Shown in pieces: positions 32,873 to 37,172 of a stretch of 64,000 bases of DNA. The stretch is taken from positions 613,789-677,788 of the forward strand of contig OY843752.1 of the NCBI GenBank assembly GCA_963693105.1, in the 5' to 3' direction. The translations under genes and the position numbers were made by a program. Origin of the DNA: an uncultured candidatus Porisulfidus sp. GTDB lineage: Bacteria; Pseudomonadota; Gammaproteobacteria; Poriferisulfidales; Oxydemutatoraceae. The number at the start of each line of letters is the position of its first letter. Position 1 is the first letter of the stretch. Under the pieces are notes generated by a model, which was given only the letters and a program-made list of their open reading frames with translations, was not told the origin of the DNA and did not search any database.

Positions 32873-32912
32873 GACATCCGGCGCCCGGGCGGCTCAGAAA
32901 CATTTGTCATAC

Positions 32913-32942
32913 TTGAATCAGGACGACGACATTGGCTATAAT
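32913..32942 (+). promoter_or_regulatory. candidate sigma70 promoter (TTGAAT-18-TATAAT) for divergent precursor gene 0
   Basis: TTGAAT at 32913-32918 and perfect TATAAT at 32937-32942, about 45 nt upstream of the ATG at 32989. Confidence 0.4.
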
Positions 32943-32988
32943 GAGCGTCACTCGGGACATTGACCAACAACATGAAGAGGTTTTAATT

Positions 32989-33312
32989 ATGGCAAAACAA
33001 GAAGACAACACGGTAACACTGCCAAGGATGCCTGAGACGGCATCCGCGGATTTGGCTGCCCGTTACCTCAAGGACGAGGATTTCCGCGCCGAGTTCGACA
33101 AGGACCCGAAAGCGGCGATTTCAAAGGCCGCTGGCCGGGAAGTGCCGTCCGATATGGAAGTCAAGATTCATCGCAACGACGAAAAATGCTGGCACATCGC
33201 GCTTCCGTCAAAGGCGCGGATTGACGCGTTGGGTGAAGAGGACATTGATGGCATATCCGGAGGTGTTGACAGGCGTACACAACACTGGGGCCACGGCTTG
33301 TGCTTCGGTTAA
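32989..33312 (+). CDS. NHLP-leader precursor peptide 0 (divergent; leader …EEDIDGISGG, short core VDRRTQHWGHGLCFG)
   Basis: …ADLAARYLKDEDFRAEFDKDPKAAISKAAGREVPSDMEVKIHRNDEKCWHIALP… is homologous to the leaders of the four downstream precursors; start at Met preceded by GAAGAGG. Confidence 0.6.
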   Translation: MAKQEDNTVTLPRMPETASADLAARYLKDEDFRAEFDKDPKAAISKAAGREVPSDMEVKIHRNDEKCWHIALPSKARIDALGEEDIDGISGGVDRRTQHWGHGLCFG

Positions 33313-33388
33313 GGACAGACTGCGTCTGTCCCCGGAGGCCGGCGAAGGCGCTGACGCGCCCATAACCGCCGGGCGGTCGGAACCCAGA

Positions 33389-33426
33389 CCCGCGGTGCGG
33401 CCCATGGTCGCCCGCGGGTTTTTTTA
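33389..33426 (+). terminator. rho-independent terminator (CCCGCGG…CCGCGGG + T8)
   Basis: GC-rich inverted repeat followed by TTTTTTTT. Confidence 0.6.
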
Positions 33427-33460
33427 TCCGCGCCAACCCGTTCAGAAACCCTTGTCAGTA

Positions 33461-33488
33461 TTGACACAAATATCCAGCCTTGTATATT
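33461..33488 (+). promoter_or_regulatory. sigma70-type promoter TTGACA-16-TATATT of precursor 1
   Basis: consensus -35 and near-consensus -10, about 52 nt upstream of ATG; conserved in every cassette. Confidence 0.55.
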
Positions 33489-33540
33489 CTGCGGCCCTGG
33501 TGCAATTTCGCACAATAACAATTAAAAAAGGAAACCTGTT

Positions 33541-34053
33541 ATGGAAAAACAACAAACCAGCAAGTTGACGATGCCGGTGACGCCTGAGGCAATCTCTGCA
33601 ACGTTGGCCATTCTTTACGCCGAAGATGCGGATTTTCGCGCTGCATTTGACAAGGACCCGAAAGCGACGGTTGCCAAAGTTTCTGGCCAGGAAATCCCGT
33701 CCGATGTGGAAATCGTGGTTCATCGCAACGACCCCAAACGCTGGCATATCACGCTTCCGGTGGAAGGAATGGATGTCGCACAACTGGGGGACAAGGAGAT
33801 GGGGGACGTAGCCGGAGGCGTGTCTTTTTTCACTGGTGCGGGCATGATTGGGTGCATCACTGGCAATATAGTTGCTGCGTTGTGTCCTGGTGCTTGCTGC
33901 TCCCAGGAGCCGGCGTCGGGTACTTCCGCTCCTACTGAGGCCCAGCAGGCGTTTGCCGCCGACCCCTTAGGGCCAATCATTGGCGCGTTGAGCACGATGC
34001 GCGATGCGCTGAACAGGGCAGGTGTCACCGGCTCAAGCGGAAGCGGCGGCTGA
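33541..34053 (+). CDS. NHLP-leader precursor peptide 1 (leader to …MGDVAGG; 77-aa Gly/Ala-rich core with 4 Cys: …IGCITGNIVAALCPGACCSQ…; Gly/Ser tail)
   Basis: leader …ILYAEDADFRAAFDKDPKATVAKVSGQEIPSDVEIVVHRNDPKRWHITLPVEGMD… matches the nitrile-hydratase-like leader peptide family ending in a double-glycine. Confidence 0.8.
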   Translation: MEKQQTSKLTMPVTPEAISATLAILYAEDADFRAAFDKDPKATVAKVSGQEIPSDVEIVVHRNDPKRWHITLPVEGMDVAQLGDKEMGDVAGGVSFFTGAGMIGCITGNIVAALCPGACCSQEPASGTSAPTEAQQAFAADPLGPIIGALSTMRDALNRAGVTGSSGSGG

Positions 34054-34078
34054 TTCGACCGTTTCGGTCTGAACCCAA

Positions 34079-34117
34079 CCCGCGGTGCGGCCCCATGGCC
34101 GCCCGCGGGTTTTTTTA
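34079..34117 (+). terminator. rho-independent terminator (same hairpin + T8)
   Basis: CCCGCGGTGCGGCCCCATGGCCGCCCGCGGG followed by TTTTTTT. Confidence 0.6.
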
Positions 34118-34151
34118 TCCGCGCCAACCCGTTCAGAAACCTTTGTCAGTA

Positions 34152-35247
34152 TGCAAAAGCTCAGACACCTTTGGCACTCTGATCTGCGAGGAGAGCCATG
34201 CAAATCCATCGTGTCGGATACCGCATCAAGGGGTATTCACAAGTAGTCAAATTAGGGCATCTTTGGGATATGACGAGCAAAGATGCCCTGCAACGTATCA
34301 AAATCCTTGAGTTCGCCGAGCGGCACGGACAGGGCGCCGCTATCGATGCCTTTGAAGTCAGTTCGCGTACGCTGTATCGCTGGCGCCGCGCGCTCAAACT
34401 TCACAACAACCGCATCAGCGCACTTACCCCCAAATCATGCGCGCCGCACCGCAAACGGCCGCCGGCCACCGCGCCCGCCGTGGCCGCGCAAATACGCGCC
34501 ATGCGATTCCATAAACACCACCCCAATATGGGCAAAGCCACTATCCACGCCAGCGAGGAGTTCCGGCGCTGGTGCCGCGAGAACCGGGTGGCGCTGCCGA
34601 GTGTGTCCACCATCGGGCGCATCATCGCGCGTGCGCCGGATAAAATGCGCCACGCCCCGCTACGACTCGGCCCGCGCGGACAGCCCAAATCCGTGCGCCA
34701 GCAACACAAAACACGCCGCATCAAAGGTTATCAACCGGCCCCGCTGGAACTCATCGCTGGCGATACCATCGTCCGAATGCGCGATGGCATCCGCCGCTAC
34801 CTCACCACCTTCATCGACCCCAACAGCCGCTTTGCCGTCGCCTTCGCCTCGCGCACCGCTTCCAGCCGTCAAGCCACCCTTACCCTCAACGCCCTCATCG
34901 ACCTGCTGCCGGCAGCCCCCAAATACCTGCTCACCGACAACGGCTCCGAGTTCATGGGCGACTTCCAAAAACGACTCGATGAACTCCATATCACCCACTG
35001 GTGGACCTACCCCAACTCACCCAAAATGAACCCTCACGCCGAACGCTTCAACCGCACCATCCAGGAGAGTTTCGTCGACTACCACGACGACCTCCTGTTC
35101 TCCGACCTGACCCTCTTCAACCAAAAACTCGCCGAATGGCTGGTCTTCTACAACACCCAAAGACCACACCATTCCCTCAAACGCCAATCTCCCATACAAT
35201 ACCTCTCACAACAACTTCCATACTGCCAAAGGTATTGGACTTGTACA
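34152..35247 (+). mobile_element. insertion sequence, IS481-like (about 1.1 kb, imperfect terminal IRs TGCAAAAG…CCTTTGGCA / TGTACAAG…CCTTTGGCA, 5-bp direct repeat CAGTA)
   Basis: interrupts the otherwise conserved spacer …CCTTTGTCAGTA|TTGACACAAG… seen intact in the other cassettes; CAGTA present on both flanks (34147-34151 and 35248-35252). Confidence 0.75.
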
Positions 35248-35858: not shown

Positions 35859-35893
35859 ATCCGCGCCAACCCGTTCAGAAACCTTTGTCAGTA

Positions 35894-35921
35894 TTGACAC
35901 AAGTATCCAGCCTTGTATATT
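35894..35921 (+). promoter_or_regulatory. sigma70-type promoter TTGACA-16-TATATT of precursor 3
   Basis: conserved cassette promoter. Confidence 0.55.
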
Positions 35922-35973
35922 CTGCGGCCATGGTGCAATTTCGCACAATGACAATTGAAAAAGGATATCTATT

Positions 35974-36429
35974 ATGGAAAAACAACAAGCTAGTACGTTG
36001 ACGATGCCGGTGACGCCTGAGGCGACCTCTGCGACGTTGGCGCTTCTTTACGCCAAAGACGCGGATTTCCGCGCTGAATTTGACAAGGACCCGAAAGCGG
36101 CGATTACCAAAGCTTCCGGCCAGGAAATCCCGTCCAATGTGGAAATTGTGGTTCATCGCAACGACCCCAAACGCTGGCATATCACGCTTCCGGTGGAAGG
36201 AATGGATGCCGCACTGGCTGACACGGATATCGAGAACATAGCCGGAGGCACGGGAGCGCCGAGCGATATAACTGGTGCCGCTCTTGGGTTCGTAAGTATG
36301 GCGCTGGGTATATGTGGTGGTGTTTGTGAGCCGGACGGAGGCTACCGGATAGGCTCGTTGGCGGCGTTAGCCGCGGTGACGGGCGCGACGGCTGCTGCCG
36401 GGTCAGGCGGCGGCCCAAGCGGCGGCTGA
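35974..36429 (+). CDS. NHLP-leader precursor peptide 3 (leader identical in most positions to copy 2; core diverges after …GICGGVC: EPDGGYRIGSLAALAAVTGATAAAGSGGGPSGG)
   Basis: as above. Confidence 0.8.
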   Translation: MEKQQASTLTMPVTPEATSATLALLYAKDADFRAEFDKDPKAAITKASGQEIPSNVEIVVHRNDPKRWHITLPVEGMDAALADTDIENIAGGTGAPSDITGAALGFVSMALGICGGVCEPDGGYRIGSLAALAAVTGATAAAGSGGGPSGG

Positions 36430-36455
36430 TTCGACCGTTTCGGTCTGAACCCAAA

Positions 36456-36492
36456 CCCGCGGTGTGGCCCATGGTCGCCCGCGGGTTTTTTT
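36456..36492 (+). terminator. rho-independent terminator (same hairpin + T7)
   Basis: inverted repeat + T-run. Confidence 0.6.
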
Positions 36493-36527
36493 ATCCGCGC
36501 CAACCCGTTCAGAAACCTTTGTCAGTA

Positions 36528-36555
36528 TTGACACAAGTATCCAGCCTTGTATATT
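36528..36555 (+). promoter_or_regulatory. sigma70-type promoter TTGACA-16-TATATT of precursor 4
   Basis: conserved cassette promoter. Confidence 0.55.
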
Positions 36556-36607
36556 TTGCGGCCATGGTGCAATTTCGCACAATGACAATTAAAAAAGGAT
36601 ATCTATT

Positions 36608-37090
36608 ATGGAAAAACAACAATCTAGTACGTTGACGATGCCGGCGACGCCTGAGGCGACCTCTGCAGCGTTGGCCCTTCTTTACGCCAAAGACGCGGAT
36701 TTCCGCGCTGAATTTGACAAGGATCCGAAAGCGGCGATTGCCAAAGCTTCCGGCCAGGAAGTCCCGTCCAATGTGGAAATTGTGGTTCATCGCAACGACC
36801 CCAAACGCTGGCATGTCACGCTTCCGGTGGAAGGAATGGATGCCGCACTGGATGACGCGGATATCGAGAACATAGCCGGAGGCACGGCACCGGGCGCTAT
36901 GGCGACTGCTGTTGGGTTCATGGGTATGGCACTGGGTGTGTGTAGTGGTCTTTGCACGGAGGAGGAGGCTATTTCCAGCATGAGGGACGGCCAGGCGCCG
37001 CACGAATTCTTCCGACAAAATTTTGGCTTGTTTTTTGGAGCTGGGAGTGGTGGTTCTGGCGGCTCAAGCGGCAGCGCAAGCGGCGGCTGA
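36608..37090 (+). CDS. NHLP-leader precursor peptide 4 (leader to …IENIAGG; core TAPGAMATAVGFMGMALGVCSGLCTEEEAISSMRDGQAPHEFFRQNFGLFFGAGSGGSGGSSGSASGG)
   Basis: as above; core with CSGLC and Gly/Ser-rich tail. Confidence 0.8.
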   Translation: MEKQQSSTLTMPATPEATSAALALLYAKDADFRAEFDKDPKAAIAKASGQEVPSNVEIVVHRNDPKRWHVTLPVEGMDAALDDADIENIAGGTAPGAMATAVGFMGMALGVCSGLCTEEEAISSMRDGQAPHEFFRQNFGLFFGAGSGGSGGSSGSASGG

Positions 37091-37116
37091 TTCAACCGTT
37101 TCGGTCTGAACCCAAA

Positions 37117-37152
37117 CCCGCGGTGTGGCCCATGGCCGTCCGCGGGTTTTTT
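37117..37152 (+). terminator. rho-independent terminator (same hairpin + T6) located 20 nt upstream of nqrF
   Basis: CCCGCGGTGTGGCCCATGGCCGTCCGCGGG + TTTTTT. Confidence 0.55.
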
Positions 37153-37172
37153 GTTGGTGTACACTTGCCCCC

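Follow-up and report, generated by a model that had tools for sequence, protein, structure and literature searches.

The Na+-translocating NADH:quinone oxidoreductase (Na+-NQR) locus of an uncultured candidatus Porisulfidus sp. is split between nqrE and nqrF by an array of peptide-precursor cassettes, each furnished with its own promoter and predicted terminator. We studied this arrangement in a 64,000-nucleotide stretch of contig OY843752.1 (GenBank assembly GCA_963693105.1; hereafter the window, to which all unprefixed positions refer), where the nqrE-nqrF interval extends over 4,300 nt (32873-37172) and holds five precursor cassettes and one IS481-like insertion sequence (IS). We hold with moderate confidence that the array is an old and tolerated occupant of the nqrE-nqrF spacer, and that nqrF, apbE and nqrM are probably expressed by read-through of its last terminator. 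An initial annotation of the window had described a precursor array and an IS that separate nqrABCDE from nqrF-apbE-nqrM, and the gene boundaries bear this out, nqrE ending at 32872 and nqrF starting at 37173. It had also raised the possibility of a recent and damaging insertion, which the comparisons below do not support.

A clade-specific array in the nqr operon

We compared 165 fetched loci that carried both nqrE and nqrF (given L numbers where they need to be told apart). The gap between the two genes was at most 217 nt, with a median of 13 nt, in 156 of the 165, in agreement with the earlier statement that nqrF normally follows nqrE directly, and gaps of 2.8-4.4 kb occurred only in the clade of the window. 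The sister strain L001, a 1.48-Mb contig found by exact look-up of NqrE, has an identical NqrE (100%) and a 99.5% identical NqrF, and carries seven cassettes and no IS. At 91-93% NqrF identity, every fetched contig carries the array at the same site, with four to seven cassettes of varying content; L172 (GCA_028817225.1), L180 (GCA_028816675.1), L181 and L183-L185 span it, and the partial contigs L089, L173, L177 and L182 contain array and junction. The next tier, at 85% NqrF identity (L178 and L179), has nqrE and nqrF 21 nt apart and no array, and tiers at 62-77%, drawn from genome and metagenome collections, make up the remainder of the 156 contiguous loci. When metagenomes were scanned with NqrF, the closest match had 72% identity, and only contiguous nqrE-nqrF loci were added. 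Because relatives at or below 85% NqrF identity are contiguous at this point, we read the array as an insertion relative to the ancestral operon, and the distribution indicates a single-site, clade-specific array that arose after the split from the 85% tier.

A chimeric assembly, in which a repeat-rich peptide locus was joined into the nqr operon, is extremely improbable. The region is indeed highly repetitive, owing to the 300-nt repeats described below, such repeats break short-read assemblies, and one contig (L002) stops at the first hairpin. Against this, at least eight independent contigs, from different samples and assemblers and including contigs of 1.48 and 1.83 Mb, run from nqrE through the array into nqrF, and because so many independent assemblies show it the array is not an assembly artefact. 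The same sharing of the arrangement by at least eight spanning contigs answers the question, raised in the initial annotation, of what the nqrE-nqrF junction looks like in relatives, and it means that the arrangement is not a recent disruption. An altered C-terminus of NqrE (GILF rather than GIQF or GIQL) was considered as a trace of rearrangement at the junction and proved to be a single CAG-to-CTG substitution instead.

Purifying selection downstream of the array

The Na+-NQR locus in the window is complete, with six intact, co-oriented subunit genes in the order A to F and the maturation genes apbE and nqrM placed 3' of nqrF (Table 1). NqrF has the Fer2 (2Fe-2S), FAD_binding_6 (FAD) and NAD_binding_1 (NAD) domains; the names of nqrA-D are based on Pfam matches of identical or near-identical L001 proteins.

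We used pairwise Nei-Gojobori estimates of nonsynonymous and synonymous divergence (dN and dS) to evaluate selection on the separated genes. For nqrF, dN/dS was 0.087 between the window and L172 (dS 0.41), 0.111 between the window and L089 (dS 0.47) and 0.124 between L172 and L089 (dS 0.19), with an overall range of 0.087-0.124 at dS 0.19-0.48 among array-bearing lineages. The corresponding values for apbE were 0.13-0.14 for the window against L172 and L089 (dS 0.42-0.57) and 0.13-0.24 among array-bearing lineages. Upstream of the array, the comparison of the window with L172 gave 0.107 for nqrA (dS 0.41), 0.082 for nqrD (dS 0.31) and 0.038 for nqrE (dS 0.35), and nqrF of the array-less pair L178 and L179 gave 0.123 (dS 0.25). 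The nqrF and apbE values are indistinguishable from those of nqrA-E and from the array-less pair, which indicates that both genes have been under normal purifying selection for the whole lifetime of the array. Because this selection equals that on nqrA-E, it argues that nqrF and apbE must be expressed and that nqrF-apbE-nqrM remain functional.

These ratios also bear on the suggestion that the array is a recent disruptive insertion, with nqrF-apbE-nqrM silenced or decaying and NQR either lost or supplied by a second nqrF. The strong terminator and missing Shine-Dalgarno (SD) sequence directly upstream of nqrF would fit such a scenario, and, as the IS shows, insertions still reach this region. 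The arrangement is, however, conserved across lineages at dS ~0.4, with nqrF and apbE intact and at dN/dS of 0.09-0.14, and nqrF matches TIGR01941 over its full length at 650 bits. Among the best 120 of 8,000 homologues, none from the 1,833,960-bp source contig was a second NqrF with 70% identity or more, which leaves room for more distant paralogues; a second nqrF, one of the explanations proposed initially, is not needed to explain function. We thus regard recent disruption as very improbable and largely refuted already, and the earlier concern that Na+-NQR may be compromised does not agree with nqrF and apbE evolving like nqrA-E at dS 0.4-0.57.

Table 1. Positions of genes, cassettes and other elements of the nqr locus in the window. 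Promoters and terminators are predictions.
Feature	Position	Strand	Content or evidence
nqrA	28249-29607	+	Open reading frame; Pfam NQRA_N/NQRA_SLBB on L001 counterpart
nqrB	about 29607-30815	+	Open reading frame; Pfam NQR2_RnfD_RnfE on L001 counterpart
nqrC	30805-31599	+	Open reading frame; Pfam FMN_bind on L001 counterpart
nqrD	31603-32256	+	Open reading frame; Pfam Rnf-Nqr on L001 counterpart
nqrE	32264-32872	+	TIGR01940, 333 bits (cutoff 247.6); protein 100% identical in L001 and L002
Cassette 1 (divergent type)	32893-33425	+	Box CTCAGAAACATTTGTCATAC 32893-32912; promoter TTGAAT-18-TATAAT 32913-32942; precursor P1 32989-33312, 107 aa, short 15-aa core; terminator 33389-33425
Cassette 2	33441-34116	+	Box 33441-33460; promoter TTGACA-16-TATATT 33461-33488; precursor P2 33541-34053, 170 aa; terminator 34079-34116
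Orphaned box of cassette 3	34132-34151	+	Separated from its -35 hexamer by the IS
Target duplication	34147-34151 (left), 35248-35252 (right)		CAGTA, 5 bp
IS481-like insertion sequence	34152-35247	+	1,096 bp; ends in imperfect inverted repeats (~25 nt), TGCAAAAGCTCAGACACCTTTGGCA / TGTACAAGTCCAATACCTTTGGCA
Transposase	34198-35256	+	Open reading frame; stop codon outside the element, in the flanking -35 hexamer
Cassette 3	35253-35858	+	Core promoter 35253-35280 (box severed by the IS); precursor P3 35333-35794, 153 aa; terminator 35821-35858
Cassette 4	35874-36492	+	Box 35874-35893; promoter 35894-35921; precursor P4 35974-36429, 151 aa; terminator 36456-36492
Cassette 5	36508-37152	+	Box 36508-36527; promoter 36528-36555; precursor P5 36608-37090, 160 aa; terminator 37117-37152 (T6)
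Junction	37153-37172	+	GTTGGTGTACACTTGCCCCC, 20 nt between the last T-tract (ends 37152) and the nqrF ATG
nqrF	37173-38387	+	Intact; TIGR01941, 650 bits, full model (positions 1-405)
apbE	38384-39415	+	PF02424, 285 bits
nqrM	39435-39599	+	54-aa open reading frame in the expected position; PF04400 match weak (E = 0.0014, below cutoff)

Cassette organization and predicted regulatory elements

The cassettes are homologous as whole modules, with 300-nt repeats that are 91-98% identical among units 2-5 and 61% identical for unit 1. Each module runs from a 20-nt box through a near-consensus sigma-70 promoter and a 5' untranslated region (UTR) of ~50 nt with an SD sequence (AAGGA or GAGG) to the precursor open reading frame (ORF) and a hairpin with its T-tract. 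Four copies of the promoter read TTGACA-16-TATATT, with 11 of 12 consensus matches, and unit 1 has TTGAAT-18-TATAAT; a consensus scan reported 15 promoter-like sites in the array region, compared to 4.0 ± 1.9 in shuffled sequences. The -35 and -10 hexamers, the 16-nt length of the spacer and the box are kept between lineages, and the sequence of the promoter spacer diverges. The box (GTTCAGAAACCTTTGTCAGTA) abuts the -35 hexamer of the cassettes and, written as GTTCAGAAACnTTTGTCAGTA (shorter form TCAGAAACnTTTGTCA), lies 5' of the -35 of every precursor cassette in all lineages. Its motif has four matches in the window sequence where none is expected, it does not occur in 166 other fetched loci, and it is present at a second, unrelated locus (L083:9867-9882 and 10691-10706). 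We consider it probably the binding site of a regulator. The precursor genes, initially described as part of foreign-looking cassettes, are compositionally distinct, their G+C content at third codon positions (GC3) being 0.58-0.63 compared to 0.74-0.88 in the nqr genes.

Five hairpins, one 3' of each precursor ORF, consist of a GC-rich stem of 14-16 bp followed by T6-7, and their base has the form ACCCGCGG...CCGCGGGT. The folded segments reach -33 to -40 kcal/mol (z -2.6 to -6.2), the hairpin pattern has three matches against 0.11 expected, and the pairing is preserved despite sequence change between lineages. By this signature of stem-loop and U-tract the elements are predicted intrinsic (rho-independent) terminators, all five of which a simple terminator scanner overlooked owing to an internal mismatch. 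An Rfam scan of 32700-37400 gave merely sub-threshold chance matches on the terminators. Two other identities were rejected: repetitive extragenic palindromic elements, because within the 64-kb window the hairpins are confined to the array, and an integron gene-cassette array, because the cassettes have promoters of their own, the hairpins carry T-tracts and there is no tyrosine-recombinase match among the window ORFs scanned.

The mobile element between cassettes 2 and 3 resembles the IS481 family in its length of ~1.1 kb, its single DDE (rve) transposase with an N-terminal helix-turn-helix, its inverted repeats starting with TG and its short target duplication. It departs from the family in that the stop codon of the transposase lies outside the element and the best match, NF033577, scores 164 bits, short of the 224 that its cutoff requires; the Pfam models rve (40.8 bits) and rve_3 (49.7 bits) do pass their thresholds. 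The IS is present as a single copy in the window and disrupts no ORF; cassette 3 keeps its core promoter and loses its box. In L001 the IS is missing and the target is uninterrupted (...TTTGTCAGTATTGACAC...). Because it is absent from a strain with a 100% identical NqrE, only the IS is recent, and it appears to be a later, strain-specific hop into an inter-cassette spacer and the sole recent part of the insert. The initial description of the region as an insertion therefore holds relative to the ancestral operon, and holds as a recent event for the IS; it does not hold in that sense for the array itself, which is shared by lineages at 91-93% NqrF identity.

The cassette products

The first ~92 residues of the five ORFs match TIGR03793, the model of the nitrile hydratase leader peptide (NHLP), with E values of 7e-11 to 8e-13. 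All 15 aligned members of the family match this model, and the family profile matches the NHLP leaders of the PDB entries 8tb1_A (E = 3.6e-7) and 9cjx_A (E = 3.1e-5), with alignments that extend up to the GG. Glycines 91 and 92 are invariant in the 15 sequences; the leader is ~60-90% identical and the cores are barely alignable. Cores measure 55-78 aa, save for the 15 aa of P1, and are rich in Gly and Ala; they contain a C-x3-C pair and finish in Gly/Ser-rich tails whose last residues are GG (…GSSGSGG, …GSSGTTGG, …SGGGPSGG and …GGSSGSASGG for the cores at 33820-34053, 35609-35794, 36250-36429 and 36884-37090). They hold only two or three Cys residues and are not visibly rich in Cys, Ser and Thr. 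In these respects the cassette products look like precursors of bacteriocins or of peptides that are ribosomally synthesized and then post-translationally modified (RiPPs). Members of the family are very scarce: 5.8 billion proteins yielded about 10 clusters, all from the array-bearing clade or from the same set of metagenome-assembled genomes. A metagenome scan with the precursor alignment returned no confirmed relatives, and matches of the family to the microcin-related TIGR03949 are weak.

The L001 protein closest to P3 is 88.6% identical to it, although NqrE is identical in the two strains. At L001:11970-14309 a unit of two cassettes is duplicated in tandem (148, 151, 148 and 151 aa); the duplicated cores are identical and the leaders slightly mosaic, which points to unequal crossing-over together with gene conversion within the array. 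Because some cores differ markedly between strains with the same NqrE and a unit has been duplicated in L001, the array appears to be a hot spot of diversification.

Sister genomes encode two more precursors of this family (144 and 146 aa) with the same anatomy of box, promoter and terminator; they lie at L083:9700-11300 (also in L084-L088), between an ABC/beta-propeller system associated with a pyrroloquinoline quinone (PQQ) dehydrogenase and MotA/ExbB-like genes. The 5' UTRs of these L083-type precursors contain tandem GTGTCAGTGGCAGCA repeats. Because the module from the box to the ACCCGCGG-type terminator recurs at this unrelated locus, the cassette can be seen as a self-contained unit. The neighbours of the L083 precursors were also considered as RiPP enzymes, and this was rejected given their resemblance to the PQQ-dehydrogenase-associated and MotA/ExbB-like genes just named.

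A conserved junction upstream of nqrF

The last terminator ends exactly 20 nt upstream of the nqrF ATG, as the initial annotation had placed it, and its observation that nqrF lacks a recognizable SD sequence and promoter can be confirmed: there is no SD sequence in GTTGGTGTACACTTGCCCCC, and the consensus scan reports no promoter in this junction and none with at least 9 of 12 matches between 36610 and 37172. The junction does contain a -10-like TACACT 7 nt before the ATG and a palindrome, GTGTACAC. Sixteen of its nucleotides, GTGTACACTTGCCCCC, are identical in L172-type contigs and differ by one substitution in L089, despite dS of 0.41-0.47. Array-bearing lineages are alike at nqrF in having the hairpin, T6, G(TTG)GTGTACACTTGCCSCC and the ATG; the hairpin loop, the inner stem and all sequence 5' of the hairpin differ between them. 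We estimate the probability that 16 neutral sites stay unchanged at a synonymous difference (pS) of ~0.3 as 0.7^16, or ~0.003, and because the 16 nt are conserved beyond this neutral expectation, some element of the junction is constrained. The GGTGTA part of the junction resembles the ancestral 21-nt spacer of L178 (TGCGGGCGGTGTAGCGCGGCC).

Folding predictions leave the sequence that follows the last hairpin largely unpaired. The nearest relatives without an array (L003-L005) likewise have no SD sequence at nqrF, which begins 10-13 nt after the nqrE stop codon; this indicates that the missing SD is ancestral and that nqrF was presumably translationally coupled in the ancestor, a coupling that the array would have broken. 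Two other start codons were rejected, an in-frame GTG because its position (37125) is within the hairpin and a TTG at -18 in L172 because it has no counterpart in the window. Counted from the ATG, the NCBIfam model begins at residue 4 of NqrF. By inspection, a sigma-54 reading of the junction fails because the spacing (GG-N9-GC) is wrong and the GG is absent in L172 and L089, and an extended -10 reading fails because the TG is one base out of register.

Possible routes to expression of nqrF-apbE-nqrM

In the explanation we favour, the array would have entered the nqrE-nqrF spacer, then ~20 nt long, in the common ancestor of a small clade of Gammaproteobacteria, uncultured and Chromatiales-like, and remained at the entry site since; recombination among the repeated sequences of leaders, promoters and terminators would let cassettes appear, disappear, duplicate and diversify. 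RNA polymerase that escapes the hairpin of the last cassette probably transcribes nqrF-apbE-nqrM; most of these transcripts would originate from the strong cassette promoters, perhaps joined by some from the nqrA promoter, and nqrF would be translated without an SD sequence from an ATG in an unstructured region. Read-through is favoured because, past the cassette-5 promoter, the scan gave no promoter with 9 or more of 12 matches before nqrF. Several observations weigh against this explanation. With GC-rich stems of 14-16 bp and T6-8, the hairpins have the appearance of efficient terminators, so read-through would have to be a small fraction of transcripts, and the conserved 16 nt of the junction must imply a sequence-specific element, be it a -10, a regulator site or a determinant of translation initiation, which plain read-through does not explain. 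With regard to the cassette products, the TIGR03793 scores of the five precursors (41.8-48.1 bits) are below the curated cutoff of 50.9, and the larger ORFs of the window include no RiPP maturation enzyme or C39-peptidase ABC exporter. Likewise, no LanM, cyclodehydratase, radical-SAM or C39-ABC gene was found within ±10 kb in L001 or L172, nor at L083.

The main rival to read-through is a promoter of nqrF's own in the conserved junction, which we judge possible but unlikely. TACACT would then act as the -10 and transcription would start at or near the A of the ATG, yielding a leaderless nqrF-apbE-nqrM mRNA, and a start of this kind would account for the absence of an SD sequence and for the fact that both the junction and its distance to the ATG are conserved. 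The window, L001, L089 and L172-type contigs keep both the 16-nt sequence and its 7-nt distance to the ATG; a 3-nt indel upstream of TACACT is the junction's sole change in length; and the junction is nearly constant while the number of cassettes and the identity of the last one vary between contigs. TACACT matches TATAAT at only 4 of 6 positions, however, and failed the consensus scan, and the TG that might extend it is misplaced by one base. Moreover, there is no -35-like hexamer 16-18 nt upstream, where the GC-rich 3' arm of the hairpin lies. A second rival, which we find rather doubtful, holds that the hairpins serve mainly in RNA processing or stabilization or as weak attenuators, so that nqrA-nqrM would be one long transcript cut into stable segments. 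An A-run (CCCAAACCCGCGG) before each hairpin can pair with part of the T-tract, the structurally conserved hairpins are limited to the array, and three to seven of them are tolerated upstream of an essential gene, all of which would suit processing elements. On the other hand, a hairpin followed by T6-8 is the canonical signature of an intrinsic terminator, the conserved promoter of each cassette fits monocistronic units, and the hairpin that L172-type arrays also have directly after nqrE speaks against a processing function.

Beyond plain read-through, we tentatively consider that expression of nqrF-apbE-nqrM has been rewired onto the regulon of the peptide cassettes, with the junction GTGTACACTTGCC as a dedicated element, though we think this improbable on balance. 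The regulon would comprise the 20-nt box, its regulator and the strong cassette promoters; hairpin, U-tract and GTGTACACTTGCC would together form an attenuator or re-initiation element, or a leaderless promoter; and the cassettes would be self-contained box-to-terminator modules that colonise intergenic spacers.

Comparison with known systems

The component parts of the locus are of known kinds, namely NHLP precursor arrays, intrinsic terminators after bacteriocin genes, an IS481-like element and an Na+-NQR operon. What is unusual is a peptide array laden with promoters and terminators that is stably nested in an essential respiratory operon and abuts a gene without an SD sequence. We found no report of a peptide array nested in an nqr operon in the literature on Oxydemutatoraceae, NHLP, nqr internal promoters and terminator read-through. 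The canonical Na+-NQR locus, for example in Vibrio, is nqrABCDEF-apbE-nqrM; the locus in the window agrees with it in having all genes intact and in the same order and orientation, and differs by the 4,300 nt, instead of a median of 13 nt, between nqrE and nqrF.

Multi-copy precursor families with NHLP/Nif11 leaders were reportedly described by Haft and colleagues in 2010. The cassettes share with such RiPP precursors a long conserved leader that ends in Gly-Gly, hypervariable cores and tandem paralogues. They differ in falling below the TIGR03793 cutoff, in their rarity and Gly/Ala-rich cores, in the box, promoter and terminator that accompany each gene, in being nested in a respiratory operon, and in the lack of a nearby LanM, cyclodehydratase, radical-SAM or C39-ABC gene. 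Precursors of this type, which include the prochlorosin ProcA genes and have a leader related to the nitrile hydratase alpha subunit, can lie far from their maturation enzymes.

Partial terminators follow the structural genes of lantibiotics and other bacteriocins, for example between nisA and nisB. Our working model is similar in that a hairpin directly 3' of a highly transcribed precursor gene would lower downstream expression; unlike in the nisin case, the downstream genes are the unrelated housekeeping genes nqrF-apbE-nqrM, and up to seven hairpins stand in series. Class II microcins have a double-glycine leader of 15-19 aa, adjacent immunity genes and genes for a peptidase-containing ABC transporter (PCAT) and a membrane fusion protein (MFP), and Ser as the final residue. 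The cassette products resemble these and other double-glycine bacteriocins in the GG cleavage motif and in hydrophobic, Gly/Ala-rich cores of 55-78 aa with C-x3-C, and differ in their NHLP leader of ~92 aa and in ending with Gly; no adjacent immunity, PCAT or MFP genes of this type were found among the window ORFs scanned or in the L001 flanks. Their Ser/Gly-rich C-terminal tails also recall the siderophore-linked class IIb microcins, a likeness that we treat as a lead only.

Genomic neighbourhood

In the 85% NqrF tier the nqr operon is split elsewhere, by 4-6 kb of unrelated genes between nqrB and nqrC (L178:1655-7926 and L179:3885-7934). The insert of L178 holds a UvrD-like helicase gene and an RNase T-like gene on the opposite strand, and that of L179 a MotB/OmpA-like gene and DUF8245, both with additional unassigned ORFs. 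An ORF of 257-259 aa overlaps the nqrC start in the two contigs; the idea that the 257-aa ORF of L179 is a duplicated NqrB fragment was not borne out. Insertions appear to have landed repeatedly at the nqr locus in this lineage.

Between hemL (minus strand, ending at ~27209) and nqrA, positions 27200-28200 of the window have a G+C content of 0.47-0.51, compared to about 0.65, and hold the minus-strand ORFs 27246-27734 and 27718-28143, with a faint DUF2335 match in the L001 counterpart. Because hemL is directly followed by nqrA in L172-type genomes, this segment is another lineage-variable insertion, just upstream of the nqr promoter region. Positions 23699-25353 contain an Mrr-type restriction endonuclease gene and an ORF of low GC3, whose L001 counterparts match Mrr and NmeDI_C, and resemble a small island of defence or restriction genes close to the nqr locus.

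Two other gene sets might be thought relevant to peptide production. A PmbA/TldD-type metallopeptidase gene lies at 18168-19610, followed by an overlapping ORF at 19520-20950; TldD/TldE process the leader of microcin B17 in Escherichia coli, and in the window the PmbA/TldD-type genes most likely have a housekeeping role. Positions 1465-3644 encode a HisKA_3 histidine kinase and a NarL/LuxR-type response regulator, the only obvious transcription-factor pair among the ORFs scanned, and a link between this pair and the cassette box would be pure speculation.

Biological implications

The locus presents an essential, stoichiometric respiratory operon that appears to have been split for a long time, across species-level divergence, and to be working still. 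It may serve as a natural system for studying how much terminator read-through, or which compensatory element, sustains a downstream essential gene, and how a once translationally coupled gene without an SD sequence is translated after uncoupling. Were the rewiring considered above true, the assembly of a core respiratory enzyme would be coupled to the production of bacteriocin-like peptides. The cassettes themselves represent a very rare family with NHLP-type leaders and a conserved cis-regulatory box in uncultured, symbiont-like Gammaproteobacteria, and may be useful for RiPP and bacteriocin mining.

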